IMG/VR virus record: IMGVR_UViG_3300013102_000007
Span: 1 to 64,000 of that record
Reading direction: 5' to 3' (one strand)
DNA length: 64,000 nt
Origin: a virus
Shown one piece after another: positions 1,765-59,735 of this stretch. How positions within the stretch are numbered: position 1 is the first letter of the stretch; the number at the start of each line of letters is the position of its first letter. The notes under the pieces are model-generated. The model worked only from the letters and a program-made list of their open reading frames with translations. It was not told where the DNA came from and ran no database searches. The translations under genes were made by a program, and so were the position numbers.

Positions 1765-2590
1765 ATGCCCAAATAGGTAGTAAAATACACTAAGGGTTTT
1801 TATATCGCCCGCTGTAAAAGTTTATTCACGGTATCTTAAACGCGGTTTTCATTTTTGGCTATTTTGATAGGTTTTTACACTAAGTGGAGATTATTTTTTG
1901 ATTAAAGTGTGTGTTTAATCGACATAGTACCTAGCTTAATAATGCCATAATCCCTATTTAACCACATCTAAGCGCACATTTACACGTTAACAGGCTAAAA
2001 CCCCGATTTACTGGCAAACCCTGTTTATCTTACTTATACTTCTTTATTATTATCTATTGTTATAATGCTATTGACCATTACTATTTGGGTAGCAATTCTA
2101 CAGATCATGCAAACAGATTATAAACCTTAATTAGTGTTAACGTACTTTCAATCTTAAGGTTATCTATATAATTTAATATATACTATCATTCGGCTGAGTT
2201 GCGTATCAATTTACTACACTACGTATGTGTGCGGTGTTAACTTTGCTTTCTTACTTACTTGTTATATTGTATTATATACTTTTGACCTTTTATAATGGAT
2301 AGCAACCTATTTGCCAAAACTAATAAAATACTATTTCGCGTTTAAGCCACTTTTTAAGCGATTTAAGACACTTTGTACCGTTTTGGTACTAACATACCAC
2401 CCAAAGGCAGATCGTTAAAAACAGCCTTCACAGTAGTTTAAAGGCACTATTTTTTCATACTTAGCCAAATCATATCATTTTCATACACTTTTGGCCTGTT
2501 ATAAGTCAACATATAGCTTTACTTTATGCATGCAATAGTTAAGTTATGACTTTACATTAAAATTTTTCTCCCTGATAATCAGTCAGTTAC

Positions 2591-2616
2591 AATTTATTTT
2601 AAAAATAATTTCATAA
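2591..2616 (+). repeat. 26-nt promoter-upstream repeat, copy 1
   Basis: AATTTATTTTAAAAATAATTTCATAA is identical to 57522-57547. Both copies lie just upstream of TTTG/-7 boxes. Confidence 0.85.
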
Positions 2617-2620
2617 AATG

Positions 2621-2651
2621 TTTGGTATTACAAATAAAGTTTGCACCTTTG
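2621..2651 (+). promoter_or_regulatory. promoter candidate TTTG-N19-CACCTTTG
   Basis: TTTG 2621-2624, 19-nt spacer, CACCTTTG 2644-2651 (near TAnnTTTG). Homologous in layout to the 57553-57584 promoter. Confidence 0.5.
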
Positions 2652-2911
2652 AAGTGTCGGAAGTGACAAACACAAAAATACTACTCTAGTATAGAAAGTC
2701 ACTAAGTATCTAAACTAACCCGATAAGCGGTAATAAGCTTTACACCTGTTTAATTATTACACTGGTTAGCAGTTCAACTAATTATATTTACAACGTGCCG
2801 TGATGGTTAACAAAGGTAAATGTACAGTTCTTTGAAGGTCGGGAAGTTTAAATAGAGTTCGCATATCTAACAAGGTTACATAATGCTTGAGCCATTTAAA
2901 CGAGTATAATA

Positions 2912-2986
2912 TACGGGTTAACTCAGCGGTAGAGTGATACTTCAATTCGAAGTAACAAGTCATAGGTTCGAATCCTATACCCGTAG
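2912..2986 (+). tRNA. tRNA-like gene with aberrant anticodon loop
   Basis: Perfect 7-bp acceptor TACGGGT/ACCCGTA, D arm ACTC-AGCGGTA-GAGT, T arm ATAGG-TTCGAAT-CCTAT. The anticodon arm is TACTT(C)-AATTC-(G)AAGTA with no U33 and no 7-nt canonical loop. Confidence 0.55.
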
Positions 2987-3012
2987 CAAACGAAAACAAA
3001 AAATTTAAAGTT

Positions 3013-3246
3013 ATGAAAACACTATTGTTACCTGTAAATTTACAGCAGGGTCTATTTATTGATGAAAATAACATTGTATTAGGTGTTTACACTCATCACA
3101 CTAAAATAATTGTTCCAAAATTTCCTTTTACGGGCAATGATTTAACTATCCCCGACAACATGCGGGATTATGAAATTAAAGAAAATTATGCAGATAGTTT
3201 TGGACTTAATATGTGGACTAATAAAGGCAGAAAGGAGTTATACTAA
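3013..3246 (+). CDS. hypothetical protein
   Basis: 77-aa ORF, first gene of a tightly packed plus-strand array. Confidence 0.6.
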   Translation: MKTLLLPVNLQQGLFIDENNIVLGVYTHHTKIIVPKFPFTGNDLTIPDNMRDYEIKENYADSFGLNMWTNKGRKELY

Positions 3247-3248
3247 TC

Positions 3249-3419
3249 ATGAGCAACAATAAAAAGAAACAAATACAGGAACGTTTAGAATATCTAAGGC
3301 ACGAAATTCAAAACGAACAAATCAGCTACGGGGAAATTGTAGAACTGCAAGGTTTAGCAGACGATATAGAACCAAACGATTTTGAATTATTGGAATGGGC
3401 ACAACCTAATTATAACTAG
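3249..3419 (+). CDS. hypothetical small protein (56 aa)
   Basis: ATG 3249 to TAG 3417-3419 fills the gap between neighbours exactly. MSNNKKKQIQERLEYLRHEIQNEQISYGEIVELQGLADDIEP... Confidence 0.55.
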   Translation: MSNNKKKQIQERLEYLRHEIQNEQISYGEIVELQGLADDIEPNDFELLEWAQPNYN

Positions 3420-3421
3420 TT

Positions 3422-3682
3422 ATGGCAGATCAAACAAATTTTAACCTACTAACATTAAAAACTTTATTGTTAGATACAATCACATATTTAAAATTTGGTA
3501 GTCATTTGGCACCAAATTACAAGGCAGCAAAATATAGCTTATGTGATTTGTCAGGACAAAAACGAACTATTACAAATAAACAATTACTTCACTTAATAGG
3601 AACCGTGTATAAAGACAATGACAAAGAGTCTGATTTTTGGGCTGTCATTGATAAGTTTAACGCGGCTAAATTTTTAAATTAA
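3422..3682 (+). CDS. hypothetical protein
   Basis: 86-aa ORF in the packed array. Confidence 0.6.
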   Translation: MADQTNFNLLTLKTLLLDTITYLKFGSHLAPNYKAAKYSLCDLSGQKRTITNKQLLHLIGTVYKDNDKESDFWAVIDKFNAAKFLN

Positions 3683-3690
3683 AAACTATC

Positions 3691-3789
3691 ATGCAAAATA
3701 TTTTAAACTCAGACCAATTTAAGGCAGCTACAGTTATACTAAGTATAGCTTATGCCGTATCTATTTACCTTTATTTAATCAACTGGTAA
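3691..3789 (+). CDS. mini membrane peptide (32 aa)
   Basis: MQNILNSDQFKAATVILSIAYAVSIYLYLINW with one TM. Its stop overlaps the next ATG (TAATG). Confidence 0.4.
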   Translation: MQNILNSDQFKAATVILSIAYAVSIYLYLINW

Positions 3790-3932
3790 TGGTTACACAG
3801 GAATTAACAATTAGTCAAAAGACTTTTACCGATATGATTAGCGGACTAATCGCAAGCGGTGTAACGTTTAAGGCGTTCGAATCAACAACAAACAAAAATT
3901 ATATAATTATTCAATTCTTAGGAGGTTATTAA
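3789..3932 (+). CDS. hypothetical small protein (47 aa)
   Basis: ATG overlapping the previous stop. It ends 1 nt before the ATG of 3934. Confidence 0.45.
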   Translation: MVTQELTISQKTFTDMISGLIASGVTFKAFESTTNKNYIIIQFLGGY

Positions 3933-3933
3933 A

Positions 3934-4401
3934 ATGAAAAACACAGTAACAAGCTTTAAAGAAAAAGCAGAGCAAAACGGGGCAATAGATGCAATTGCAA
4001 TTACAGACGAAAAAGGTAATCGTGTAGGTATTTCTAAATATGAAAACGGTGAGGCCGTTATTTCAGTAGATTTTAAAAATGTAGGTTATATGGCCTCATT
4101 AAATAATGAAGGTAAACAAGCTATAATAAAATTCTTAAGTGAAGAGGCTACAGAGGTAAAAACTAAACGGGAACTATACGTATTAGTTGGTATACCCGCT
4201 GAAAATGCACCCGTTCTTTTTTCAAATACGCATTTTCTAGTGTATGCTGATAAAAATGAAGCTGATCGAGCTTGTAAAATGTTCAACGATTACTTAGTAG
4301 AAAACAATAAAATGGATATGGGCAAGTTTGTAGTTGATACGTTGGAAAACGCTAAACTATCATTCCCAAATGGTAAGTTTGATTACAGCTTACTAAATTA
4401 A
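3934..4401 (+). CDS. hypothetical protein
   Basis: 155-aa ORF. Confidence 0.7.
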   Translation: MKNTVTSFKEKAEQNGAIDAIAITDEKGNRVGISKYENGEAVISVDFKNVGYMASLNNEGKQAIIKFLSEEATEVKTKRELYVLVGIPAENAPVLFSNTHFLVYADKNEADRACKMFNDYLVENNKMDMGKFVVDTLENAKLSFPNGKFDYSLLN

Positions 4402-4408
4402 GGCATAT

Positions 4409-4470
4409 CCCTGCAATTATGGTAAAGGCTGAAATAATAAGGCTTAACTGTTCGAATCAGTTTGCAGGGG
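4409..4470 (+). ncRNA. 62-nt tRNA-like element lacking an anticodon arm
   Basis: 7-bp acceptor-like stem CCCTGCA/TGCAGGG. Canonical T arm AACTG-TTCGAAT-CAGTT. One further hairpin AUUAU-(GGUAAAGGCUGAA)-AUAAU with a GG-containing loop. No anticodon stem-loop. Confidence 0.55.
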
Positions 4471-4511
4471 CTAAGGTTACAATGTCGTAGCTTTAATTAA
4501 AAATTATTACA

Positions 4512-4790
4512 ATGAAAAATAACTCATTAAACAGCATTTTAGCTGCATTTTTAACTGTAGCAAGTACAGAGGCCGAAACAATTGAAAGATTAGAAAAAAC
4601 TTTATCAGATTATAAAGCTAATCCAAATTTAGAAACTCTTTCCACCCTATCTGCGGCTGCACATTTAGTAGATTTAAAATGGCAACATTTGAAATTTGAG
4701 GAATTGCAAAAAGAAAACCCACAACCTACAAAAAACACTGACGAATCAGACACTGAATTTCTTAAAAAATTTGGTTTCAGTGCAAATTAG
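4512..4790 (+). CDS. hypothetical protein
   Basis: 92-aa ORF. Its stop at 4788-4790 lies 1 nt before hammerhead HH1. Confidence 0.65.
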   Translation: MKNNSLNSILAAFLTVASTEAETIERLEKTLSDYKANPNLETLSTLSAAAHLVDLKWQHLKFEELQKENPQPTKNTDESDTEFLKKFGFSAN

Positions 4791-4791
4791 A

Positions 4792-4849
4792 GTTTATCTG
4801 ATGAGACTTTAATAGTCGAAATAGTAGTGTAAAAGCTACTATCATAAAC
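4792..4849 (+). ncRNA. hammerhead ribozyme, type I (HH1)
   Basis: Stem I GUUUAU/AUAAAC. Core CUGAUGA 4798-4804. Stem II GACU-UUAAU-AGUC. GAA 4818-4820. Stem III AUAGUAG-loop-CUACUAU. C17 at 4843. Confidence 0.85.
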
Positions 4850-4866
4850 AAATAAAAATTAAAATC

Positions 4867-5094
4867 ATGGAAAATCAAACATTTAAATCAACAGAATTAA
4901 TTAAAGGCACTAGATATTTTTTAGATGGTCTTAAAGATGTTAGTGGTGTATTTAGTCACATTAAGGACGGTCGGGTTTATTTTACCGATTTCAAAGAAGA
5001 GAGGCCACAAATTATGCCATACTTAGAGAAAAACGGAGACGATACAGATTTCAATCAACAACTTTTTGATATTTGGGCAGTAGAAAAAGTTTAA
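4867..5094 (+). CDS. hypothetical protein (TRYxLD..KDVSGV family)
   Basis: 75-aa ORF, paralogous to 13954-14154 and 14157-14363. Its stop codon lies inside stem I of HH2. Confidence 0.65.
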   Translation: MENQTFKSTELIKGTRYFLDGLKDVSGVFSHIKDGRVYFTDFKEERPQIMPYLEKNGDDTDFNQQLFDIWAVEKV

Positions 5095-5147
5095 CTGATG
5101 AGGCTTAAAATAGCCGAAACACGGGGTGAAAATCCCCTGTCTTAAAC
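5089..5147 (+). ncRNA. hammerhead ribozyme, type I (HH2)
   Basis: Stem I GUUUAA/UUAAAC. Core CUGAUGA 5095-5101. Stem II GGCU-UAAAAU-AGCC. GAA 5116-5118. Stem III ACA(C)GGGG-loop-CCCCUGU. C17 at 5141. Confidence 0.85.
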
Positions 5148-5164
5148 AATATAATCACGAAATT

Positions 5165-5641
5165 ATGAACAAAGAAGTAACAAACGGGTATGCTAACCTA
5201 AGAAGGTTAAAACCTACAGCACCATTTAGCCAACGTTTAAACGATTTTATTAATGATCGGGCAGAGGGATTAAGATATATAGATGGTGCTTTTCCTGAAC
5301 TATCATTTGAGGAATTTAAAGCAGAATTTAAAAGCAGTGGTGTAATGCCTATCAGTAACGAACATTGTGAAAACAATATTTTCGGGGACATTGAAACAAA
5401 CATAGCTTTTAGGGCTTGGCATGACTCAATACATTTAGAACTAAACGAAGGTTTTGAATATTTTTCTGAAGCTATTGTAGCATTTAAACAAATGAACGAA
5501 TTGCCTTTAGATTGGGTTTTTGAAAGAAATTTAATTTATTGTGAAGTTATAGGGCAAGCTGCCTACCATAGAAACACAGGCAATTTTGTTGAAGATCAAA
5601 GAGAATTTACAATTAACTTTTTAGAATCGGAAAAATTTTAA
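5165..5641 (+). CDS. hypothetical protein
   Basis: The track ORF 5126-5641 starts at a GTG inside HH2. The first ATG (5165) lies 23 nt after the predicted cleavage site. Confidence 0.65.
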   Translation: MNKEVTNGYANLRRLKPTAPFSQRLNDFINDRAEGLRYIDGAFPELSFEEFKAEFKSSGVMPISNEHCENNIFGDIETNIAFRAWHDSIHLELNEGFEYFSEAIVAFKQMNELPLDWVFERNLIYCEVIGQAAYHRNTGNFVEDQREFTINFLESEKF

Positions 5642-5645
5642 AGCT

Positions 5646-5831
5646 ATGAAAACTATAAAAATAACAGATGAAAACTTTTTAAATCTAAAGGAATTTGGTC
5701 ATGTAGTACCGAAAGATTACAGCAAATTTAAAGTATCTAAAGAGTATTTAGTTTGTGGCTTAGATGAAACTGATTTATTAAAAGTAAGATGTACTCAAAA
5801 TTGTCCAGTTAATATAAAAATAGTAGATTAA
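5646..5831 (+). CDS. hypothetical protein
   Basis: 61-aa ORF in the packed array. Confidence 0.6.
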   Translation: MKTIKITDENFLNLKEFGHVVPKDYSKFKVSKEYLVCGLDETDLLKVRCTQNCPVNIKIVD

Positions 5832-5835
5832 AGCC

Positions 5836-6072
5836 ATGCAAAATATCGAAATTAAGCTGCCACAACTCAACAAAGGTAATTGTTTATTATTTACCACTCT
5901 GTTTAAATTAAAGTATCCTAAAGCTAAAGTAATTGTTTGCTGGAATAAAAAGAGTAATATAGTTTCCTTTAGTGCTGTCTTACATGGTAAGAGGTATTTT
6001 TACAAACGTAAAGATAGGAAACAAAGTAAATTCTGGTTTAATGGTCATGTAGTTCCAATGGAACATAAATAA
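5836..6072 (+). CDS. hypothetical protein
   Basis: 78-aa basic ORF in the packed array. Confidence 0.6.
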   Translation: MQNIEIKLPQLNKGNCLLFTTLFKLKYPKAKVIVCWNKKSNIVSFSAVLHGKRYFYKRKDRKQSKFWFNGHVVPMEHK

Positions 6073-6080
6073 AATCTGTT

Positions 6081-6302
6081 ATGAAACAAAAAGAATTATT
6101 ACAGCATATAAAAGACAATTCTATTTGTCTAAATCAATTAAGTTATGATAAATTAACTGGCAACTCTTATGAATTAAGAGCAAAAACAGGGGGATTTAAA
6201 ACCTTTATCCTTTACCAAAATCCAGAGTCTGATTATTGGAATATTTATTTATCAGAGGGTAACGAAATAGCTAAAATAGAAAACAATTTTAACAACTTTT
6301 AA
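6081..6302 (+). CDS. hypothetical protein
   Basis: 73-aa ORF in the packed array. Confidence 0.6.
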   Translation: MKQKELLQHIKDNSICLNQLSYDKLTGNSYELRAKTGGFKTFILYQNPESDYWNIYLSEGNEIAKIENNFNNF

Positions 6303-6311
6303 AAACTGGTT

Positions 6312-7508
6312 ATGAAAAATATTAAAATCTATGGTGATGCTATATCGGCTAACCTTTACCTAATCACAGACTTTTTAAAACGAAGCTCTATACAATTTAG
6401 TTGGGTTAGTTCTCTAACAAATACTAATGCTATTCGCTTTGAAGATGGAACTATCATATATAACCCTACAGTTAACGAAGTAGCAGATAAATTGGGATGG
6501 GTAGCAGAGCCAAAATGTACTGAATATGATGTATCTATTTTTGGCGGTGGTGTAGCTGGTTTAAGTGCAGCTGTTTACGCAGCATCTGAGGGTTTAAGAA
6601 CGGTAATAGTTGAACGTGAAACAATAGGGGGACAGGCCGGAACAAGTTCTTTAATCGAAAATTATTTAGGTTTTCCAAAAGGTATTTCGGGCGCTGAACT
6701 GGCTTTAAGGGCAAGGGAACAGGCTTTAAAATTTGGAGTTGAAATTCTATTACTAAAAGAAGGTATTAAAGGAGTTTCTAAAGATAATAATATTAACATT
6801 CAATTAGCTACAGGTGAAACAATAACCTCTAAAACTACAATCTGTGCTACAGGTGTAGAATACGCAAAATTGAACTTAGCAAACGAAAACAAGTACCTTA
6901 ATAAAGGTTTGTATTATGGTGCTGGTGCAAGTGAAGCTCCATTTTGTAAACACAAAGATGTTTATGTTGTTGGAGGTGGTAATTCAGCAGGTCAGGCCGC
7001 TGTCTACTTTTCTAAATTTGCTAAACGTGTCTACATGGTAATTCGAAAAGGAAATTTATCTGAAACTATGTCAGATTATTTAGTAAAACATATTTCAACT
7101 ATCACAAACATTTCAATACTATATAATTCAGAGGTTACAGACCTTAGCGGTAAAAAAGGTTTAGAAGCTATTAAAATATTTAATAGCAAAACTAATCAAA
7201 CCGACTTTTTTAAAACATCTAAATTATTTGTGTGTATAGGTGGAAAACCAAATACAGATTGGGCTAAAGATACTGCAATTTGCAGGGATCGTAACGGCTA
7301 TCTTTACACTGGAAACGATTTAATAGAATTAGACCAGTATAAGGAATGTTGGAAACATGACAGACAGCCTTTTCATTTAGAAACTAGTGTTGCAGGTGTG
7401 TTTGCCGCTGGTGATGTTAGATTTAATTCTGTAAAAAGAGTAGCTTCAGCAGTAGGCGAAGGGGCTATGGCAGTAACACAAATACATCAATATTTATCAA
7501 AATTGTAA
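6312..7508 (+). CDS. thioredoxin-reductase-like FAD/NAD(P)H oxidoreductase lacking the redox CxxC, with N-terminal extension
   Basis: FAD Rossmann GGGVAGLSAAVYAA, second dinucleotide site VVGGGNSAGQAA, C-terminal GVFAAGDV. The position of the TrxB CATC site reads YGAGASEA. Confidence 0.8.
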   Translation: MKNIKIYGDAISANLYLITDFLKRSSIQFSWVSSLTNTNAIRFEDGTIIYNPTVNEVADKLGWVAEPKCTEYDVSIFGGGVAGLSAAVYAASEGLRTVIVERETIGGQAGTSSLIENYLGFPKGISGAELALRAREQALKFGVEILLLKEGIKGVSKDNNINIQLATGETITSKTTICATGVEYAKLNLANENKYLNKGLYYGAGASEAPFCKHKDVYVVGGGNSAGQAAVYFSKFAKRVYMVIRKGNLSETMSDYLVKHISTITNISILYNSEVTDLSGKKGLEAIKIFNSKTNQTDFFKTSKLFVCIGGKPNTDWAKDTAICRDRNGYLYTGNDLIELDQYKECWKHDRQPFHLETSVAGVFAAGDVRFNSVKRVASAVGEGAMAVTQIHQYLSKL

Positions 7509-7514
7509 AAAACA

Positions 7515-7545
7515 TTTGCATAAGCAAATAATTTATTTATCTTAG
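7515..7545 (+). promoter_or_regulatory. promoter candidate TTTG-N19-TATCTTAG
   Basis: TTTG 7515-7518, 19-nt spacer, TATCTTAG 7538-7545, 24 nt upstream of ATG 7569. Confidence 0.5.
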
Positions 7546-7568
7546 CATTATATTTAAAAACTAAAATT

Positions 7569-7991
7569 ATGAATGTACAGGAAATTATTAAAAGAGCTAC
7601 TGCAAATGGTGGTGGCCTAACGTTTAAAGCTGATTACAGTGCGCCTAAATCTGGCTATATGGTAGCCTTAACAGGTGGTTTGGTTTGTAAAGAGTCAGAA
7701 CTTGAAAAGGTTATGTTTAGGTATTTACATGACCATCATCACATTACAACAGGTGAAAATTATTACTTTGGTTTATGGTTAAAAGATGGTGTTGCTTACT
7801 TAGATGTTAGTCAAAACATTCAGGATAAAGAATACGCTGTGTTTCAAGGTATAGCCCGTGGACAAAAGAGCATTTACCATATTGATAGCAATAAAATTAT
7901 TGATCTACCGACCGGACAAAAAACCGGAACTACAGAACAACAACTATCATACGCTCGTCAAAAAGCTGAACAAATATTTCAAACTCTATAG
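7569..7991 (+). CDS. hypothetical protein
   Basis: 140-aa ORF downstream of a promoter candidate. Confidence 0.65.
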   Translation: MNVQEIIKRATANGGGLTFKADYSAPKSGYMVALTGGLVCKESELEKVMFRYLHDHHHITTGENYYFGLWLKDGVAYLDVSQNIQDKEYAVFQGIARGQKSIYHIDSNKIIDLPTGQKTGTTEQQLSYARQKAEQIFQTL

Positions 7992-8037
7992 CCATGCAAC
8001 TATTATTATTAATCCTAGTGCGCTGTGCCTGTGTGGC

Positions 8038-8205
8038 ATGGTGTGCTTTAATTTTATCTTTCTTATGAAAAAGCTAAGCCCAAAATTTTATCTTATGCTT
8101 AGGAAGCTATTAATTATAGACCTTCTTTTGCAAATACCTCAGATGATAATTATTATAGCATTAATGTTTGCTATGTTATTAGGTCATTTTATTTACATTC
8201 GTTAA
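8038..8205 (+). CDS. possible small membrane protein
   Basis: In-frame ATG within track ORF 7858-8205, lying after the end of 7569-7991. Very hydrophobic product. Start uncertain. Confidence 0.3.
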   Translation: MVCFNFIFLMKKLSPKFYLMLRKLLIIDLLLQIPQMIIIIALMFAMLLGHFIYIR

Positions 8206-8223
8206 CCTTTAAAATTTAAAGTC

Positions 8224-8862
8224 ATGTTACAACTAACAAACTCAACAGACACATTAAAATTTGTAGCCTTTATTCAAGAGGCAATGAACTACGTTAGCTA
8301 TTTAACTCCTACTAAAATAAATTCAGGTGGGTGTGGTATTTTTGCCAGAGCGTTACATAAACTATTATCAGATAATAATATTGAGTCTGAAATTATAGCT
8401 TTATACTTTGATGAAAAAAGTGATAAGGCAGAGAAAAATTTAATAGATTACGTAAATAATAACAATAAAAAAGTATTGAGTGAAGCTGGTGCCGATCACA
8501 TAGTTTTAAAAGTTAATGAAATTTATGTAGATTCTACAGGTTTAGTAAATATGGCCGCTTTAATGAGTAGAAATACTGTTAAGTTAACATTAGATCAACT
8601 AAACGACATAATTGATAAAGGTGAATGGAATGAAGTATTTGATAGGGAACAAGAACCTTTTATAATTGAAAAATTACAGGAAGTTTTTAATAACTACGAA
8701 AATTATCATTTCGGTTTGTATATTAACAAACAATTAGCAGAAAGAAAAATCAGATTGTCCGATCATACTATTAAAACCGCTAAACGTTTACAAAGGGAAG
8801 CCATGAGTAGTATGTTTGGGTTTTCAGGTAATATAAATAACAACAATAATAGTCCATTTTAA
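8224..8862 (+). CDS. hypothetical protein
   Basis: 212-aa ORF with an Asn-rich C-terminus. Confidence 0.65.
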   Translation: MLQLTNSTDTLKFVAFIQEAMNYVSYLTPTKINSGGCGIFARALHKLLSDNNIESEIIALYFDEKSDKAEKNLIDYVNNNNKKVLSEAGADHIVLKVNEIYVDSTGLVNMAALMSRNTVKLTLDQLNDIIDKGEWNEVFDREQEPFIIEKLQEVFNNYENYHFGLYINKQLAERKIRLSDHTIKTAKRLQREAMSSMFGFSGNINNNNNSPF

Positions 8863-8888
8863 TTTTCACATTTTAACAAACTAACGTC

Positions 8889-9197
8889 ATGAGAAAGATT
8901 TTCATCGTAGCAATCTACAAACTATCATCGATTCAAAAAACAGTAATCGGTACATTATCAGAACATTTAGTAGGTGATAACCACACAGTTCACCACAAAA
9001 TTTGCACAGGTCTTATTATAGGATTTATGGGCGTACTTTTAAGTAAAACAGGGGATGGTGCTTGGCATGTAGTGTGCGATTGGGCTGGCTATGGTTTACA
9101 CGGTGTAGGTATGTTACCATTTGTTGAGCCAGTGGCAAAAGCCTATGCCAAACGAATTAACAAAATTGATAACAAAGGGGGTAATAGTGGAGACTAA
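8889..9197 (+). CDS. hypothetical membrane protein
   Basis: 102-aa ORF with hydrophobic segments. Confidence 0.55.
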   Translation: MRKIFIVAIYKLSSIQKTVIGTLSEHLVGDNHTVHHKICTGLIIGFMGVLLSKTGDGAWHVVCDWAGYGLHGVGMLPFVEPVAKAYAKRINKIDNKGGNSGD

Positions 9198-9342
9198 TCC
9201 AATTCAAAAACAGCGCACAAAAGAAAGTGTAGAAGTAAGAGGGGTATGCGCGGCCATTCAAGCAATGGCGTACCCCTCATTTGAAGACTTAAACAAACAG
9301 TTAAATATATTTGGTTATCACCTAGTTAAAAATGCAAAATAA
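9121..9342 (+). CDS. hypothetical protein (start uncertain)
   Basis: Track ORF overlapping the 3' end of 8889-9197. A GTG at 9187 would reduce the overlap to 11 nt. Confidence 0.4.
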   Translation: MLSQWQKPMPNELTKLITKGVIVETNPIQKQRTKESVEVRGVCAAIQAMAYPSFEDLNKQLNIFGYHLVKNAK

Positions 9343-9811
9343 GATGAAAAATTTCGGTTTAATTCCAGTTAAAAATTTTGGACAGGTTAGCGATTTGGTT
9401 TTCAGATCAGCACAACCTATTTACAATTATGAATATCAGTGGCTTAAAAATGTTGTAGGTATTGACTTAATTGTCAACCTACGTGCAGAGAAAGATAGGG
9501 ATGCAAAGTATGCTCCGGTGCATGGCATTGACAGTGTTACAATTCCTGTAAAGGATCATCAGGCACCAAGCTATGATAATGTAGAGGCTTTTAACCATGT
9601 TTTAATTAAAGCTATGGCAGAAAATAAAAAGGTACTCATACATTGTGAACATGGTCATGGTCGGACGTCTACATTTAGTGTTATAGCTAAAATTTTATCA
9701 GGTAGCACTTTTGATGAAGCTATTAATCAGGAAAAAGAAGAATTTAATTATACATTTAAATATCAGTCACAAATTGATTTTTTAAGTGATTACGCTAAAA
9801 CTATTAACTAA
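9332..9811 (+). CDS. dual-specificity / tyrosine protein phosphatase (Cys-X5-Arg)
   Basis: Signature HCEHGHGRTS (C-X5-R-T/S P-loop) with an upstream Asp candidate in VKDHQAP. Size is typical of DSP-fold phosphatases. Confidence 0.8.
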   Translation: MQNKMKNFGLIPVKNFGQVSDLVFRSAQPIYNYEYQWLKNVVGIDLIVNLRAEKDRDAKYAPVHGIDSVTIPVKDHQAPSYDNVEAFNHVLIKAMAENKKVLIHCEHGHGRTSTFSVIAKILSGSTFDEAINQEKEEFNYTFKYQSQIDFLSDYAKTIN

Positions 9812-10020
9812 TGAATAAGGATATTAAAAAATCTATTGTTAGGATTGTAGTAACAGTCCTAGCTTTAGTCGGTCTAAAAATCGCGGAACACAAAGTTGAA
9901 TTTGTAGAAATTGAACTATCATTAGCCATTTTGTTTTGTTGGGTATTGTTAGTTTGTTTTACATTGGTTTTAATAGCTGAGTATTTAAAATATTTGGAAG
10001 ATGAAAAAGAAAGAGATTAA
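9811..10020 (+). CDS. small membrane protein
   Basis: 69-aa ORF with two hydrophobic helices. ATG overlaps the previous stop. Confidence 0.55.
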   Translation: MNKDIKKSIVRIVVTVLALVGLKIAEHKVEFVEIELSLAILFCWVLLVCFTLVLIAEYLKYLEDEKERD

Positions 10021-36826: not shown

Positions 36827-38284
36827 TTATCTTACATTACCACCTTTAGCTATTCCAACTTTTATTTTTGTTGTAGGTGTTGTGGTTTTTGTTGTAGGTT
36901 GTTTTGTACCTCTAGCTGCCTCTTGTCTATCGTACTCTTGTTCGTATACACTATAAGCACCTCTGGCAGCTTTAGTTAATTTAACTCTTGGTATTACCTC
37001 TTTAGGGTCGGCAAAATAAGTTGTTTTAATATCACCTAAACCACCAATACCTTTATCAGTTTTTACTATAATAGCTTTCTTTTGATAATTAATTTTATCA
37101 GGATTTTTTTCAGCATAATCTTTTGTGACAATACTACCAGCTTTTAAAGTTTTGCTAGAAATGACTTTACCACCTTTACGTTGTGTTTCGGTAGCAGATG
37201 ATTTAAGAACCGGAACTGTAGCAATTCTGGCCACTTTAAATTCATCAGTTGTATTATTGTTAGCGACAGTATTACCATCAGCATCTTGCATTTTGAATTT
37301 ACCAGCACTTAAAGTAGTACCAATTGGTAAAGCAAACGATTCTCTTGCAGTTATTGTACCAGTTTTCTTAGAACTATTCGATCCATAATTAATATCGTAA
37401 TTTGTATCAATTACAGTACCTGTAGTACTTCCATCACCTCCACCACTTTTACTACCTTTACTTACACTTAAAGGACTTAAATCAGTACGTTGTTTTAATT
37501 TACTGGCTTTATCGTATTCATCAACTACATTAAGTATGTATTGGTCTTTAGTCATACCTAGCTGAGAAGCTACTGTATCTAAAGTATTTTTAAACTTAAT
37601 ATCACCGTTATACTGTCTGTATAAATCTGTAGCAAATTGATCTTTAGGAACTTGTTGTAGTTGATATTGATCAGTAAGTATAGAATTACCTTCTTCGTAT
37701 TTTCTACCAGCTATTCTACGTTTGTCAGCATTTAACAAAAGATTTTTTGCACTTAAGTCAATTGCTTTGTCCAAATAACTTGTATCTCGTGAAGTATATA
37801 AATCTCTTGAAAAAGCATTAGCTGGCAATTTGCTTGTAGGTAAATCGCTGTATTGTTTTATTTTGGTTAAAGCATCTGAAGAAACTAGTCCCATATTATT
37901 AGGATTACCTACCCAATCAGTAAGTTTAACTTGTTGAACACCTCTATCTTTAGAGATATTAACAAATTGCTCCATATCTTCAATCTTTTTTTCTAAATCC
38001 ATTCTTAGAGAAAGTCTGGTTCCTCTATCGGTTGCTTTATTAGCTTTGTAATATGTATCATATACATCATTAAGCTTTTCATTTACTTCAGGTATATCTA
38101 CTTTTTGTACACCATTAGTATTTACCTTTTTAACTATATCAGTTAATTCTTTTTGTTCAGCAGCTAATCTGGCCGCCTCATCTTGTTGTTGTTTAGCGAT
38201 ACGAGCCGCATTACGGGCAAATGCATTGTTTATGCCACTATAATTTAGTATCGTATCGTTTCCACCTTGGTAATCTACAGCCAT
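36827..38284 (-). CDS. hypothetical virion protein
   Basis: 485-aa ORF in the structural block. Its stop is 2 nt before the giant gene start. Confidence 0.65.
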   Translation of the reverse strand: MAVDYQGGNDTILNYSGINNAFARNAARIAKQQQDEAARLAAEQKELTDIVKKVNTNGVQKVDIPEVNEKLNDVYDTYYKANKATDRGTRLSLRMDLEKKIEDMEQFVNISKDRGVQQVKLTDWVGNPNNMGLVSSDALTKIKQYSDLPTSKLPANAFSRDLYTSRDTSYLDKAIDLSAKNLLLNADKRRIAGRKYEEGNSILTDQYQLQQVPKDQFATDLYRQYNGDIKFKNTLDTVASQLGMTKDQYILNVVDEYDKASKLKQRTDLSPLSVSKGSKSGGGDGSTTGTVIDTNYDINYGSNSSKKTGTITARESFALPIGTTLSAGKFKMQDADGNTVANNNTTDEFKVARIATVPVLKSSATETQRKGGKVISSKTLKAGSIVTKDYAEKNPDKINYQKKAIIVKTDKGIGGLGDIKTTYFADPKEVIPRVKLTKAARGAYSVYEQEYDRQEAARGTKQPTTKTTTPTTKIKVGIAKGGNVR

Positions 38285-57122: not shown

Positions 57123-57193
57123 TTTGCTCTGCGAGACTCGAACTCGCATCTACTGCGGAGAAGCAGCTTTCTACCAAATTGAACTAAGAGCAA
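57123..57193 (-). tRNA. tRNA-like gene, anticodon uncertain (UCC if the 7-nt loop UCUCCGC is used)
   Basis: Acceptor TTGCTCT/AGAGCAA and T arm GCGAG-TTCGAGT-CTCGC are perfect. The anticodon arm folds either as a 7-nt loop with C33 and a 2-nt variable region, or as a 6-nt loop. Confidence 0.5.
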
Positions 57194-57349
57194 TCCATTA
57201 GTCTTTCCTAAAAGTCAACCTATCCTCCTTATATCCTCAACAACAATGCTACACTTTTCTACAAAACTTCTACGTCTTTCCGTATATCGTCATGTTGTTA
57301 CGTCTTGAATATATCTACTTTCGGTATTCGTCTATCTGAATTTGTGTTG

Positions 57350-57423
57350 TAGTTCCTGAAGGATTTGAACCTCCGACCAGATGAATATAAGTCATCCACT
57401 CTACCAGACTGAGTTAAGGAACC
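57350..57423 (-). tRNA. tRNA-Ile (anticodon UAU)
   Basis: GGTTCCT/AGGAACT acceptor, D arm ACTC-AGTCTGGTA-GAGT, anticodon arm GATGA-CTTATAT-TCATC, T loop TTCAAAT. Confidence 0.8.
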
Positions 57424-57491
57424 ATGTGCAGGTATATTATTGACGTAACATACCTACTTGAAAGTTTATTAGATTCATCCGAACCGATAAA

Positions 57492-57523
57492 CAAATATAA
57501 TAACAATAATTGAAACAAACAAA
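57492..57523 (-). promoter_or_regulatory. promoter candidate TTTG-N20-TATATTTG (minus strand)
   Basis: Reverse complement reads TTTG (57523-57520), 20-nt spacer, TATATTTG (57499-57492). Divergent from the plus-strand promoter at 57553-57584. Confidence 0.5.
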
Positions 57524-57547
57524 TTTATTTTAAAAATAATTTCATAA
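57522..57547 (+). repeat. 26-nt promoter-upstream repeat, copy 2
   Basis: Identical to 2591-2616. Confidence 0.85.
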
Positions 57548-57552
57548 CCCTA

Positions 57553-57584
57553 TTTGAATATGTAAAATTAAATTTGTACATTTG
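57553..57584 (+). promoter_or_regulatory. promoter candidate TTTG-N20-TACATTTG
   Basis: TTTG 57553-57556, 20-nt spacer, TACATTTG 57577-57584. Heads the tRNA array. Confidence 0.55.
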
Positions 57585-57685
57585 TACTGTGAATAAAAAC
57601 ATGACATATTGTAATTCGTTTAGTTGGGATCAACACCGACAGAGGATTGCTATGTTTTAAGTTTTAAATTACAAAAATATATAGA

Positions 57686-57711
57686 AGCCTCTAAGAAATT
57701 AGGGGCTTTTT
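57686..57711 (+). terminator. rho-independent terminator
   Basis: AGCCTCTAA/TTAGGGGCT hairpin followed by TTTTT. Confidence 0.65.
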
Positions 57712-57719
57712 GCATTTAT

Positions 57720-57792
57720 AGCCGTGAATGTACCAAGGTGGCGACGGAAACTCCAAATCTCTGTGCGTAAGGTTCGATTCCTTAGACGGTTG
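57720..57792 (+). tRNA. tRNA-Trp (CCA), weak D arm
   Basis: T arm TAAGG-TTCGATT-CCTTA, anticodon loop CTCCAAA, 6 of 7 acceptor pairs. The D stem pairs poorly. Confidence 0.5.
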
Positions 57793-57804
57793 CTTTTTTA
57801 AATT

Positions 57805-57877
57805 GTGGGTTAAGCTAACTTGGTAGAAGCACCAGCCTGAAAAGCTGGGGGATTAAGATCGTAACTTAAAACTCACA
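57805..57877 (+). tRNA. tRNA-Phe (GAA)
   Basis: Acceptor GTGGGTT/AACTCAC, anticodon arm CCAGC-CTGAAAA-GCTGG. T loop is ATCGTAA (A54/T58 instead of T54/A58). Confidence 0.7.
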
Positions 57878-57881
57878 CAAT

Positions 57882-57957
57882 GTACAAGTACCTAATATTG
57901 GACTTGGGGTTAGTCCGCAAAACTAATTAAATAGCAGTTCGATTCTGCTCTTGTACT
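57882..57957 (+). tRNA. tRNA-Cys (GCA) with C33
   Basis: Acceptor GTACAAG/CTTGTAC is perfect. Anticodon arm TTAGT-CCGCAAA-ACTAA. T arm AGCAG-TTCGATT-CTGCT. Confidence 0.65.
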
Positions 57958-57966
57958 CGTAAAAAT

Positions 57967-58053
57967 GGAAGATTAAACCGAGTTGGCTTGGTGACTGTTT
58001 GCTAAACAGATCGTAGTTATAAAAGCTATGGGAATCGTGATCTCAATCTTCCG
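57967..58053 (+). tRNA. tRNA-Ser (GCU), type II
   Basis: Acceptor GGAAGAT/ATCTTCC, loop TTGCTAA, long variable arm. T loop is ATCGTGA (A54/T58). Confidence 0.75.
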
Positions 58054-58064
58054 CTTAATGAAAT

Positions 58065-58146
58065 AGTAGATACTTCTCATGGGAGAAAGCAGTCTTGAAA
58101 ACTGTCGGTGCGTGAAAGCGTAGGAGTTCGATTCTTCTATCTACTG
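58065..58146 (+). tRNA. tRNA-Ser (UGA), type II
   Basis: Acceptor AGTAGAT/ATCTACT, anticodon arm GCAGT-CTTGAAA-ACTGT, long variable arm, T loop TTCGATT. Confidence 0.75.
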
Positions 58147-58154
58147 CTTAATTT

Positions 58155-58224
58155 GGGAAAACGCTAAGGTTGTCGGAAGGATTGTAACCCCTAACCGCAT
58201 AAAGTTCGAGTCTTTTCTTTCCCA
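58155..58224 (+). tRNA. 70-nt tRNA-like element without a canonical D arm
   Basis: Acceptor GGGAAA(A)/(C)TTTCCC and T loop TTCGAGT are present. The middle folds best as one long bulged hairpin (58168-58196) with loop ATTGTAA (UGU). Confidence 0.4.
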
Positions 58225-58231
58225 CTAGGTA

Positions 58232-58262
58232 TTGTAATTGTAAAAAATTATTTGTACCTTTG
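58232..58262 (+). promoter_or_regulatory. internal promoter candidate TTG-N20-TACCTTTG
   Basis: TTG 58232-58234 and TACCTTTG 58255-58262. The box ends 5 nt before the first nucleotide of the tRNA at 58267. Confidence 0.5.
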
Positions 58263-58266
58263 TATT

Positions 58267-58338
58267 GCGTGGTGCTAGTAATGGTAACTGGTCAGTCTCA
58301 TAAGCTGCACGATGAGGGTTCGAGTCCCTCCCAACGCA
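58267..58338 (+). tRNA. tRNA-Met or Ile2 (CAU)
   Basis: Anticodon loop CTCATAA, D arm TAGT-AATGGTA-ACTG, T arm GAGGG-TTCGAGT-CCCTC. The acceptor has two mismatches. Confidence 0.65.
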
Positions 58339-58384
58339 ACGATAACGGTTAGCACTATACATGAAACAGAAAGGAAGTGCAATT

Positions 58385-58457
58385 GGGGATAAAGCACAAG
58401 TGGACGTGCACCTGCTTTGCAAGCAGAAGGTTCTCGGTTCAAGGCCGAGTTTCTCCA
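58385..58457 (+). tRNA. tRNA-Ala (UGC)
   Basis: G3:U70 identity pair present, D arm GCAC/GTGC, loop TTTGCAA, T arm CTCGG-TTCAAGG-CCGAG. Confidence 0.8.
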
Positions 58458-58554
58458 CGTAGTAAGAAACAGGGGTTCGAATCCCCTACTGAATCACTTG
58501 ATTGTTGGCTCGGTTCGTTTAGGGGTGAGGACGCTTACGTTGAAATTTTAAAAT
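58458..58554 (+). other. tRNA 3' half followed by tRNA 5' half (permuted order)
   Basis: 58462-58495 reads GTAAG-AAAC-AGGGG-TTCGAAT-CCCCT-ACTGAAT-C. 58508-58545 reads GCTCGGT-TC-GTTT-AGGGGTGA-GGAC-G-CTTAC-GTTGAAA. CTTAC/GTAAG are fully complementary, and the acceptor strands pair at 6 of 7 positions. Confidence 0.5.
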
Positions 58555-58629
58555 AGCTTGTCGGTCTGGTCTGGAACAGATAGCGCATTGTCAGTGCGAA
58601 GAACACGGGTTCAAATCCCGTACGAGCTG
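58555..58629 (+). tRNA. tRNA-Asp (GUC)
   Basis: Acceptor AGCTTGT/ACGAGCT, loop TTGTCAG, T arm ACGGG-TTCAAAT-CCCGT. Confidence 0.8.
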
Positions 58630-58713
58630 CATAATCCCTTCGGTGTAAATCAAAATCCACATTAAGCAAGAGGGCAGTAAGTGGTCTGCCTCATCCGATA
58701 GTGATTTAAAATT

Positions 58714-58786
58714 GCGATTATAGCATAAATGGCAAGTGTTAGGGATTTCCAATCCTTAGATTTCGGTTCGAATCCGAATAGTCGCT
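58714..58786 (+). tRNA. tRNA-Gly (UCC)
   Basis: Acceptor GCGATTA/TAGTCGC, anticodon arm AGGGA-TTTCCAA-TCCTT, T arm TTCGG-TTCGAAT-CCGAA. Confidence 0.85.
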
Positions 58787-58791
58787 CATAA

Positions 58792-58863
58792 GCTTCTTTA
58801 ATTTAACTGGTAAAATCCCTGTCTTGTAAACAGGTGTTCAGCGTTCGAGTCGTTGTTGAAGCT
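58792..58863 (+). tRNA. tRNA-Thr (UGU)
   Basis: Anticodon arm CCTGT-CTTGTAA-ACAGG, D arm ATTT/AAAT, T arm CAGCG-TTCGAGT-CGTTG. Acceptor ends with U6.U67 and U7.U66. Confidence 0.7.
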
Positions 58864-58874
58864 CTTTAAAATTC

Positions 58875-58947
58875 GTATTTGTAGCTCAGTTGGTAGAGCA
58901 AGGCACTGTTAATGCTTAGGTCGTAGGTTCGAATCCTTCCATTTACG
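58875..58947 (+). tRNA. tRNA-Asn (GUU)
   Basis: GCTC-AGTTGGTA-GAGC D arm and loop CTGTTAA. Acceptor GTATTTG/CATTTAC has U4.U69 and U5.U68. Confidence 0.75.
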
Positions 58948-59005
58948 CAAAATCCATAAGGCAATTGTGCTAGGTGGTCGTGGGAGACACGTTAGTCCTC
59001 ACCAT

Positions 59006-59078
59006 ATCTAGGTATCTCAACTGGTAGAGAACCATCCTGATAAGATGGGTTATGAAGGTTCAACTCCTTCCTTAGATA
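59006..59078 (+). tRNA. tRNA-Ile (GAU)
   Basis: Acceptor ATCTAGG/CTTAGAT, anticodon arm CCATC-CTGATAA-GATGG, T arm GAAGG-TTCAACT-CCTTC. Confidence 0.85.
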
Positions 59079-59083
59079 CTTAT

Positions 59084-59156
59084 TCAGAATTAGTTCAATT
59101 GGTAGAACGTGGCTCTTCTAAAGTCATGGTTAGGAGTTCGAGTCTCTTATTCTGAA
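59084..59156 (+). tRNA. tRNA-Arg (UCU)
   Basis: Perfect acceptor TCAGAAT/ATTCTGA, D arm GTTC-AATTGGTA-GAAC, loop CTTCTAA. Confidence 0.9.
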
Positions 59157-59185
59157 CCACATTAGAATATATGGATTATTATATC

Positions 59186-59193
59186 TATATTTG
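59186..59193 (+). promoter_or_regulatory. -7 box TATATTTG
   Basis: Perfect TAnnTTTG inside the tRNA array. No clear -33 element. Confidence 0.35.
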
Positions 59194-59315
59194 TATTACA
59201 AAGAAATTAAAAATGTTTTCAAATTTTTTACATCAGCCGCAACGTCTGCACTTGAATAGTCGAGGTTGTATTGGTATGTAAAATTTTTTAAATTAGAAAT
59301 TTACTCATAGTTTTT

Positions 59316-59344
59316 AGCCTCGGATTTTTATTCGGGGCTTTTTT
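59316..59344 (+). terminator. rho-independent terminator
   Basis: AGCCTCGGA/TTCGGGGCT 9-bp hairpin followed by TTTTTT. Confidence 0.7.
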
Positions 59345-59349
59345 GTTAT

Positions 59350-59423
59350 CAGGATGTTCCAGCAGAGGCATACGGGCTAGACTTGGAATCTAGTGTTCGT
59401 GGGTTCGAATCCCACTATCCTGA
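59350..59423 (+). tRNA. tRNA-Pro (UGG)
   Basis: Acceptor CAGGATG/TATCCTG, anticodon arm CTAGA-CTTGGAA-TCTAG, T arm GTGGG-TTCGAAT-CCCAC. D arm irregular. Confidence 0.75.
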
Positions 59424-59433
59424 CTTTATATAA

Positions 59434-59504
59434 TGCCTTATAGCACAATGGTAGTGCGACCGACTTTGACTCGGTTTATCTAGGTTCGATCCCTAGTAGG
59501 GCAT
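59434..59504 (+). tRNA. tRNA-Gln (UUG)
   Basis: Acceptor TGCCTTA/TAGGGCA, D arm GCAC-AATGGTA-GTGC, anticodon arm ACCGA-CTTTGAC-TCGGT. Confidence 0.85.
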
Positions 59505-59506
59505 CT

Positions 59507-59579
59507 GTGCTTTTGTCCGTATTGGTAGCGGAGGGAAACTGTGAATTTCCTTGAGTCGGTTCGAATCCGACATTGCACC
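59507..59579 (+). tRNA. tRNA-His (GUG)
   Basis: Anticodon arm GGAAA-CTGTGAA-TTTCC, D arm TCCG/CGGA, discriminator C73. Acceptor GTGCTTT/ATTGCAC has U5.U68 and U6.U67. No encoded G-1. Confidence 0.75.
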
Positions 59580-59583
59580 CCAT

Positions 59584-59655
59584 GTTTCCTTCGTTTAACG
59601 GATAGGACATAGCACTACGAATGCTATAATAAAGGTTCGACTCCTTTAGGAAACT
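59584..59655 (+). tRNA. tRNA-Arg (ACG)
   Basis: Perfect acceptor GTTTCCT/AGGAAAC, anticodon arm TAGCA-CTACGAA-TGCTA, T arm AAAGG-TTCGACT-CCTTT. Confidence 0.85.
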
Positions 59656-59661
59656 CTATAT

Positions 59662-59735
59662 GCGCTTATGGTGGAACGGTATACACAATGGCTTTAGAAC
59701 CCATCCAATTCTCAGTTCGAATCTGAGTAAGCGTA
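59662..59735 (+). tRNA. tRNA with anticodon UAG (Leu by code) but short variable region
   Basis: Acceptor GCGCTTA/TAAGCGT, T arm CTCAG-TTCGAAT-CTGAG, anticodon arm ATGG(C)-TTTAGAA-(C)CCAT. 6-nt variable region, no type II arm. Confidence 0.6.

Follow-up and report, generated by a model that had tools for sequence, protein, structure and literature searches.

In the viral record IMGVR_UViG_3300013102_000007 (IMG/VR), of which we analysed positions 1 to 64,000 (the whole stretch of 64,000 nucleotides (nt), hereafter the window), two otherwise odd intergenic gaps stand on either side of one small open reading frame (ORF), and raise the question of what they contain and what they would do to a transcript that runs through them. 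We found both to be occupied by type I hammerhead ribozymes lying on the coding strand: the second gap by a complete copy (HH2, 5089-5147, + strand), which is the main subject here, and the first by its sister (HH1, 4792-4849, + strand). The two copies lie 297 nt apart in a block of small rightward genes and bracket the single ORF 4867-5094 of 75 amino acids (aa), the gene order on the + strand being 92-aa ORF, a single A, HH1, 23-nt leader, 75-aa ORF, HH2, 23-nt leader and 158-aa ORF. We consider it likely that HH2 is a functional type I hammerhead in a tightly packed, rightward early operon of a tailed phage, where it cuts a polycistronic transcript into single-gene messages.

HH2 has the type I topology (i.e. 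an open-ended stem I, loop-closed stems II and III, and the order 5'-I-core-II-GAA-III-H17-I-3'), and its invariant core is complete (C3 U4 G5 A6 N7 G8 A9, G12 A13 A14, and C at H17). Stem I pairs GUUUAA (5089-5094), the last three bases of which are the TAA stop (5092-5094) of ORF 4867-5094, with UUAAAC (5142-5147), the strand that would become the 5' end of the downstream RNA. It is flanked by unpaired, family-specific adenines, one before it at 5088 (A in 126/129 members, counted here and below on the 129 distinct sequences of the subfamily to which HH2 belongs) and two after it at 5148-5149 (A in 121/129 and 97/129). Between the strands of stem I follow the core segment C3-A9 (CUGAUGA, 5095-5101; invariant in 129/129 members except N7), stem II (5102-5115, with GGCU at 5102-5105, AGCC at 5112-5115 and the loop UAAAAU at 5106-5111), the core G12 A13 A14 (GAA, 5116-5118; invariant in 129/129 members) and stem III (5119-5140). 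A hammerhead is cut 3' of C17, which leaves a 2',3'-cyclic phosphate and a 5'-OH, and by this chemistry the predicted cleavage site of HH2 is C17 (5141)/U1.1 (5142), position 17 being C in 116/129 members. Core-adjacent Watson-Crick pairing around the three helices, used as the class criteria by Perreault et al. (2011), is present at U5142-A5094 (1.1-2.1), G5102-C5115 (10.1-11.1) and A5119-U5140 (15.1-16.1). When folded in its native context, stem II reaches pair probabilities of 0.84-0.99. Folding of stem III gives A15.1-U16.1, a C-G and an A-U pair, followed by a G/C-rich helix with two registers: in the first C5122 is bulged and the loop counts 7 nt (the whole hammerhead fold then scoring -13.8 kcal/mol), and in the second, chosen by minimum free energy (MFE), C5122 is mismatched with C5137 below a GAAA tetraloop (-14.2 kcal/mol). 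An earlier annotation of this locus made from the letters only (the sequence-only reading) had placed every element of HH2 at the positions given here, and direct reading confirms them to the base; its stem III with one bulged C stands as one of two near-equal registers, whereas the MFE prefers the mismatched one.

Could such a motif have arisen by chance? Our own type I descriptor, run over both strands of the window (128 kb), matched only HH1 and HH2, and in 1000 dinucleotide-preserving shuffles of the window it gave 0.001 matches per shuffled window when set to the stringency seen here (minimum stem lengths of 6/4/3 bp) and 0.026 when relaxed to 4/3/3 bp. A covariance model (R1), built from 29 hammerheads of other viral contigs with the window sequences excluded, returned two matches only in the 64-kb window, HH1 at 58.0 bits (rough E ~1e-13) and HH2 at 55.2 bits over 5085-5151 (~1e-12). 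Rfam 15 at gathering scores, on the other hand, found 16 tRNAs only and no hammerhead in the whole window. In E-value mode the best match of both copies was RF03152 (RAGATH-1-hammerhead; 30.2 and 27.3 bits, where the gathering score is 56.3), the next a partial RF00008 (15.5 bits against 48.5), and other ribozyme families were absent from the first 16 kb of the window. Membership of HH2 in RAGATH-1 was rejected (30.2 bits lies below 56.3, and stem II has 4 bp). Although HH2 falls below every gathering threshold of the hammerhead families in clan CL00010, this is a limit of the Rfam models and not of the motif; at the same setting Rfam 15 detected 0/19 strong R1 matches in seven loci (L060, L020, L091, L014, L107, L134 and L133), so that this phage subfamily falls outside the curated hammerhead models. 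The proposal that the motif is a chance assembly or an inactive relic, with 5126-5164 being read as coding sequence from GTG 5126, can draw on the missed gathering scores and on the listing of that GTG by ORF finders. It is extremely improbable in view of the shuffles (0.001 matches per window), the R1 E-value of ~1e-12, an orthologous copy conserved with compensation, and the structure of the downstream gene, whose homologues lack the 13-aa extension and align from ATG 5165 as in the 158-aa gene calls (both discussed below).

The subfamily itself is large and uniform. The pattern CTGATGAGRCT-N5-7-AGYCGAAA is present in at least 120 IMG/VR contigs, type I accounts for 118 of the 130 core matches among the matches listed, and R1 recovered 138 copies in the window and L001-L099, with 37 more in L100-L123. 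Across the 129 distinct sequences 99.2% of the helix cells form standard pairs (26-38% if the partners are slid by 1-3 columns), as do 99.1% of the stem I cells. The covariation score of 0.762 (0.05-0.08 in the slid controls) has to be read with the caveats that the alignment (A2) was fitted to the R1 model and that the search pattern had set part of stem II beforehand, though R1 also recovered other stem II sequences. Double-sided changes are found in 14 of the 16 pairs, and the two invariant ones are the canonical G10.1-C11.1 and A15.1-U16.1. Members have a stem I of exactly 6 bp (outer pair G-C in 113/129), a 4-bp stem II starting with G-C, a loop II reading U-N-A-N-U/G and, in 116/129, U at N7. 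HH2 displays all of these features, with one extra A inserted into the loop II consensus UNANU.

Nucleotide searches reached a cultured phage as well: megablast of window positions 3000-9000 against 50,697 phage records gave no match, and blastn with the 76-nt element yielded no more than a weak one, yet it pointed to a genuine member of the family, carried by Pelagibacter phage Jormungand EXVC012P (L133, MT375528.1; 3002-3070, i.e. ~38215-38283 of the record; R1 53.1 bits). The Jormungand copy is unannotated, overlaps gp49, an annotated hypothetical gene, at its 3' end, and has two ArdA genes upstream and MarR and integrase genes downstream.

Conservation between relatives bears on the fold more directly. 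HH1 (in DNA letters, stem I GTTTAT/ATAAAC and stem II GACT/AGTC; 8-bp stem III; C17 at 4843) differs from HH2 by one flipped stem I pair, one compensated stem II pair and a wholly different stem III. The sequence-only reading had taken such differences as a sign of selection on the fold rather than of recent duplication, and had proposed an alignment with homologous gaps in related phages as a check. That alignment, once run, supports it through one locus, L134 (Ga0247815_10062746), the closest relative (60% aa identity in the downstream gene), which carries two hammerheads in the same synteny: an ORF with its TAA stop inside stem I, HHa (427-494), a 23-nt leader, a 66-aa ORF, HHb (706-773), a 19-nt leader and the 157-aa orthologue of the downstream gene. 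The stem I sequences of HH1, HH2, HHa and HHb read GUUUAU/AUAAAC, GUUUAA/UUAAAC, GUUUAA/UUAAAC and GUUUAG/CUAAAC, so that the innermost pair alone varies and is compensated every time. The stem II sequences (GACU/AGUC, GGCU/AGCC, GUCC/GGAC and GAAU/AUUC) all differ and all pair, and the stem III sequences are unrelated, each being paired. We read these compensated changes, which affect every stem, as direct evidence that selection has acted on the fold. Together with the core, the topology and the family covariation, the L134 pair upholds the identification of HH2 as a type I hammerhead. The same survey covered eight further contigs with a homologue of the downstream gene (L124-L131), none of which holds a hammerhead or an Rfam family (e.g. 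the 243-nt non-coding gap before the homologue of the 158-aa gene at L124:3759-4000), and 80 further metagenome loci with such homologues, 79 of which lack the hammerhead. We rejected the idea that the ribozyme is tied to the downstream gene family, as the hammerhead is missing from 87 of the 88 homologue-bearing contigs.

The start of the downstream gene was examined as well. ORF finders list GTG 5126, which falls inside stem III, and the sequence-only reading had favoured ATG 5165 instead. Several observations agree with the latter (gene at 5165-5641, + strand, 158 aa, phrog_7806, with profile positions 45-156 aligning to protein residues 47-155). We found 21 homologues of 141-197 aa, and in an alignment of 18 of them conservation begins at RLK.T.PFSQRLN, preceded by 0-14 residues. 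The N-terminus that starts at ATG 5165 (MNKEVTNGYANLRRLK; MNKEVTNGY) aligns with MKQSNNGLTYLKRIK, MENNKNGYSIEQLLRLK and similar sequences, whereas the 13-residue extension from GTG 5126 has no counterpart in most homologues. Public gene calls for the 78,471-bp metagenomic contig containing the window (ENA ERZ27252506) likewise give 158 aa. The A/U-rich leader (5142-5164, + strand) contains a conserved AAUCACGA, and its motif AATCACGA(A/T), which immediately precedes the ATG, is found again in L124, L126 and L134; its length of 23 nt is the mode of the family, and by inspection it has no Shine-Dalgarno-like run.

As for the neighbourhood, the phage of the window encodes a terminase large subunit, a portal protein, ribonucleotide reductase, a DNA-transfer protein and ~16 tRNAs, and the first four of these identify it as a tailed phage. 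The upstream 92-aa ORF (4512-4790, + strand) ends with a TAG stop (4788-4790) one base before HH1, which is predicted to be cut at C4843/A4844 and leaves a 23-nt leader to ATG 4867. The bracketed ORF (4867-5094, + strand) finds only itself, there being no homologue among 5.8 billion proteins. PHROG searches assigned no function to the 75-aa and 92-aa ORFs, and peptide patterns taken from the 158-aa and 75-aa proteins brought up no relatives in IMG/VR. A scan of 2000-10000 for sigma-70 promoters and terminators stayed at the level of shuffled sequence, and therefore no transcript boundary can be assigned around the ribozymes. Fifteen tRNA genes lie at 57123-59735 (both strands) and a lone one at 2912-2986, 1.8 kb upstream of HH1; in none of the tests made were the tRNAs of the window related to the ribozymes.

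From the motif, topology, covariation, orthologous conservation and gene boundaries described above, we would expect cleavage, product release and an effect on expression to proceed as follows. As soon as the polymerase has passed the 3' strand of stem I (5142-5147), the three-way junction would fold and the RNA would be cut between C5141 and U5142, with HH1 acting likewise between C4843 and A4844. Owing to the type I topology, almost the whole ribozyme would remain on the upstream product. This RNA, which carries the 75-aa ORF, would keep its TAA stop within stem I (no non-stop message being produced) and would terminate in two stable hairpins (stems II and III) and a 2',3'-cyclic phosphate. 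The downstream RNA would start with a 5'-OH and a 6-nt scar (UUAAAC), and the 23-nt leader before ATG 5165 would be unstructured. The weak, A/U-rich 6-bp stem I (~-1.7 kcal/mol) would let the 3' product leave and render the cut effectively irreversible, the net effect being single-gene messages with defined ends, whose stability and translation would be uncoupled. Processing into single-gene messages of differing stability and translation is a reading that goes back to Perreault et al. 2011 (PMC3088659) and is also found in PMC6765202.

A number of points weigh against this transcript-processing role. In nearest-neighbour folding the probability of stem I does not exceed 0.03 in native contexts of 160-360 nt, and the MFE structure of isolated HH2 leaves stem I out (the nearest-neighbour calculation credits the duplex with only the small stability quoted above). 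The activity of HH2 would depend on stabilisation by the core and by tertiary contacts, which lies beyond a nearest-neighbour computation. Natural hammerheads need a tertiary contact between stem I and loop II at low Mg2+ (PMC3088659), and here a classical loop-loop or pseudoknot contact is not visible, nor was an internal loop found; a search for a partner of loop II in 125 members (20 nt upstream and 30 nt downstream) returned no motif beyond the capping adenines and the A-rich leader. The absence of the hammerhead from 87 of the 88 other contigs with a homologue of the downstream gene implies that the ribozyme is dispensable for that gene. Furthermore, a 2019 review (PMC6765202) stresses that no phage hammerhead has yet been proven to bring a biological benefit through processing. 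Against the folding prediction we set the family-wide pairing of 99%, which shows that stem I forms in spite of its weak predicted stability. We infer that the strict 6-bp stem I, the capping adenines and the UNANU loop II may together make a stem I/loop II tertiary contact.

The way in which family members are fitted between genes was recorded for 108 unique copies, 100 of them with a clear upstream ORF. The stop codon of that ORF lies within 7 nt of the first stem I base in 75/100 copies and overlaps or lies inside the ribozyme in 51/100; the overlap of HH2 with the upstream stop, noticed in the sequence-only reading, is therefore real and a shared habit. Favoured stop positions are -3 (17 copies), -2 (13), +3 (8, as in HH2) and +7 (15, the UGA of the core). 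The distance from the cut to the ATG of the next long ORF has its mode at 23 nt and falls between 19 and 26 nt in 46/108. Tight spacing of this kind is suggestive rather than proof of function, as it could come from genome compaction alone. One could envisage that translation gates the ribozyme, in that ribosomes ending at the stem I TAA (5092-5094) unfold stem I and the core, and that cutting is confined to poorly translated transcripts or to the time before the first ribosome. Expression of the downstream gene would then be tied to translation of the upstream one, and the 51/100 stops that overlap the ribozyme are in keeping with it. The overlap is not required, however, since in about half of the members (HH1 included) the stop stands outside the ribozyme, and compaction by itself accounts for the packing. 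We regard such gating as very improbable and, in any case, as a refinement of the processing explanation and not as an exclusive rival to it. As a side observation, six members (in L012, L048 and L081, with TCATGC as the 3' strand of stem I) have the ATG of an ORF of at least 40 codons 2 nt past the cut; an ATG inside this strand may give an almost leaderless 5'-OH mRNA, perhaps by coincidence. In two other loci, tRNA T-arm-like GGTTCGATTC motifs with acceptor-like flanking pairing stand 100-170 nt past hammerheads (L001 at ~8795-8835 and L003 at ~9870-9905); ARAGORN called no tRNA at these elements, which may be tRNA-like minihelices.

Beyond the stop of the adjacent gene, the members close every incoming reading frame more often than shuffled sequences do. 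All three frames are closed before the cut in 42% of the 129 members (15% of composition-matched shuffles) and within the first 29 nt in 34% (3% of shuffles), and in HH2 the closures fall at +3 (TAA, stem I), +7 (core UGA) and +17 (loop II UAA). An element of this type would tolerate insertion at any ORF end, which is in line with a reading in which the hammerheads mark an exchangeable gene slot (short DNA homologies for the swapping of accessory genes) or constitute a selfish, self-spreading element, with RNA cleavage being secondary. The comparison with L134 fits this idea too. The two loci share hammerheads and downstream gene, and no similarity is detectable between their bracketed genes (4867-5094, 75 aa, against L134:508-708, 66 aa) or between their upstream genes (4512-4790 against L134:260-436). 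To this can be added the patchy distribution among contigs with the downstream homologue and the lack of any relative of the 75-aa protein in the 5.8 billion searched. Nevertheless, we regard the slot as unlikely: strict conservation of the catalytic nucleotides and heavy compensation speak for selection that goes beyond DNA homology and acts on an active RNA fold, similarity is often no longer detectable between small phage genes that evolve fast, and a single syntenic relative was available for comparison.

As a rule, members of the family form clusters on one strand that flank single genes, and the window conforms to this, with at least two same-strand hammerheads standing close together around a phage gene. 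By our count 30/91 locus-strands carry 2-5 copies (clusters are found e.g. in L060, L107, L047, L045 and L024), spaced by 247-1895 nt with a median near 610, which amounts to roughly one ribozyme per small gene. Five copies occupy 1.7 kb in L060 (1254-2959), all with GGUUAA in stem I, and seven occupy 5.3 kb in L107 (6748-12071). Of 47 pairs of neighbouring copies (L001-L099 and the window), 30% have the same stem I (random pairs: 4.8%), and the 3' strand of the upstream copy pairs 6/6 with the 5' strand of the next in 19/47 (40%), against 7% in random pairs. Where stem I is identical (14 pairs), the similarity of stems II and III stays at the level of random pairs, and the window and L134 retain GUUUA/UAAAC in each of their four copies despite diverged stems II and III. 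The sharing suggests that the stem I sequence itself is the target of selection or gene conversion.

A need for interchangeable ends would fit this sharing, and HH1 and HH2 may exist to excise a 298-nt RNA (4844-5141), which would then be circularised or re-ligated (by a reverse hammerhead reaction or an RtcB-type ligase) into an exonuclease-resistant, single-gene circular mRNA after the manner of retrozymes and viroid-like RNAs, a possibility that Perreault et al. (2011) had raised. The cross-pairing of neighbours, with stems II and III at background, and the common GUUUA/UAAAC would accord with it. The hybrid that the window would have to form (the HH2 body with the 3' strand of HH1), however, has an A.A mismatch at 1.1-2.1, beside the scissile bond, the weak 6-bp stem I favours release of the product, and gene conversion or a lineage-specific constraint would equally explain a shared stem I; we therefore judge circularisation here to be quite unlikely. 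A broader version seems to us unlikely. It holds that within a lineage stem I is kept, with stems II and III drifting freely, so that any ribozyme body can pair with any 5'-OH end, that excised single-gene RNAs are re-ligated or circularised, and that hammerhead pairs also delimit a slot for the exchange of unrelated small genes. If true, interchangeable ends would provide for stabilisation, at the RNA level, or for shuffling of accessory-gene messages.

Taken together, HH2 is a previously unannotated hammerhead of a type published in phages since 2011, which moves a gene start from GTG 5126 to ATG 5165 and accounts for two gaps that would otherwise look odd. What is mildly new is the abundance and uniformity of the subfamily (very abundant and stereotyped, one narrow pattern alone occurring in at least 120 IMG/VR contigs), the gap in Rfam 15, and the unannotated Jormungand copy over a called coding sequence. 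Because Rfam 15 fails at its curated thresholds, the subfamily is invisible to standard annotation even in this cultured phage. The regularities of the family appear not to have been pointed out before, a comparison made without the alignments of Perreault et al. (2011). These regularities offer a way to probe the role of phage hammerheads: the stop abutting or inside the ribozyme, the ~23-nt leader, the capping adenines and the shared stem I are concrete, mutable predictions for a cultured system.

Among known systems, HH2 shares its core and three-way junction with the families of Rfam clan CL00010 (RF00163 Hammerhead_1, RF00008 Hammerhead_3, Hammerhead_II and others). It resembles RF03152 RAGATH-1 in type I topology, in the CUGAUGAG..CGAAAC core and in a short stem I; the RAGATH-1 model, however, combines a stem II of 1 bp with an upstream 5' hairpin, an element that aligns poorly here, and the stem II of HH2 is a regular helix of 4 bp. 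In RNA viruses of fungi and plants, type I hammerheads in the 5' untranslated regions (5'-UTRs) make the initiation of translation possible (bioRxiv 10.1101/2024.05.16.594327). Like HH2 they stand just upstream of an ORF, sometimes as tandem pairs around 186-399 nt, and their self-cleavage makes the 5' end of the translated RNA. They are, however, eukaryotic and cap-independent and belong to RNA genomes, while HH2 lies in the operon of a DNA phage in a bacterium. Retrozymes and viroid-like RNAs (PMC7761336, PMC7229834) also have two same-sense hammerheads that delimit an RNA of a few hundred nt with 5'-OH and 2',3'-cyclic-phosphate ends. Their units are direct repeats with identical ribozymes, non-coding or replicative, and form circular RNAs, whereas the ribozymes of the window differ from each other, bracket a protein-coding ORF and would give a hybrid mismatched at 1.1-2.1. 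All three hammerhead topologies are known in phages (PMC7761336), and the closest parallel comes from prophages, in which clustered hammerheads flank single genes or short blocks (Perreault et al. 2011, PLoS Comput Biol, PMC3088659); three tandem sets of these cleave in vitro and one in vivo, and a processing role was proposed. The sets tested there mix types I, II and III, in contrast to the two copies of the window, which are both of type I and come from a very uniform subfamily. The ArdA/MarR/integrase neighbourhood of the Jormungand copy resembles the Agrobacterium triple-hammerhead locus of the same study, and the pair in the window agrees with its clusters in the canonical core, in the same-strand intergenic copies around small genes of changing identity, and in the phage context.

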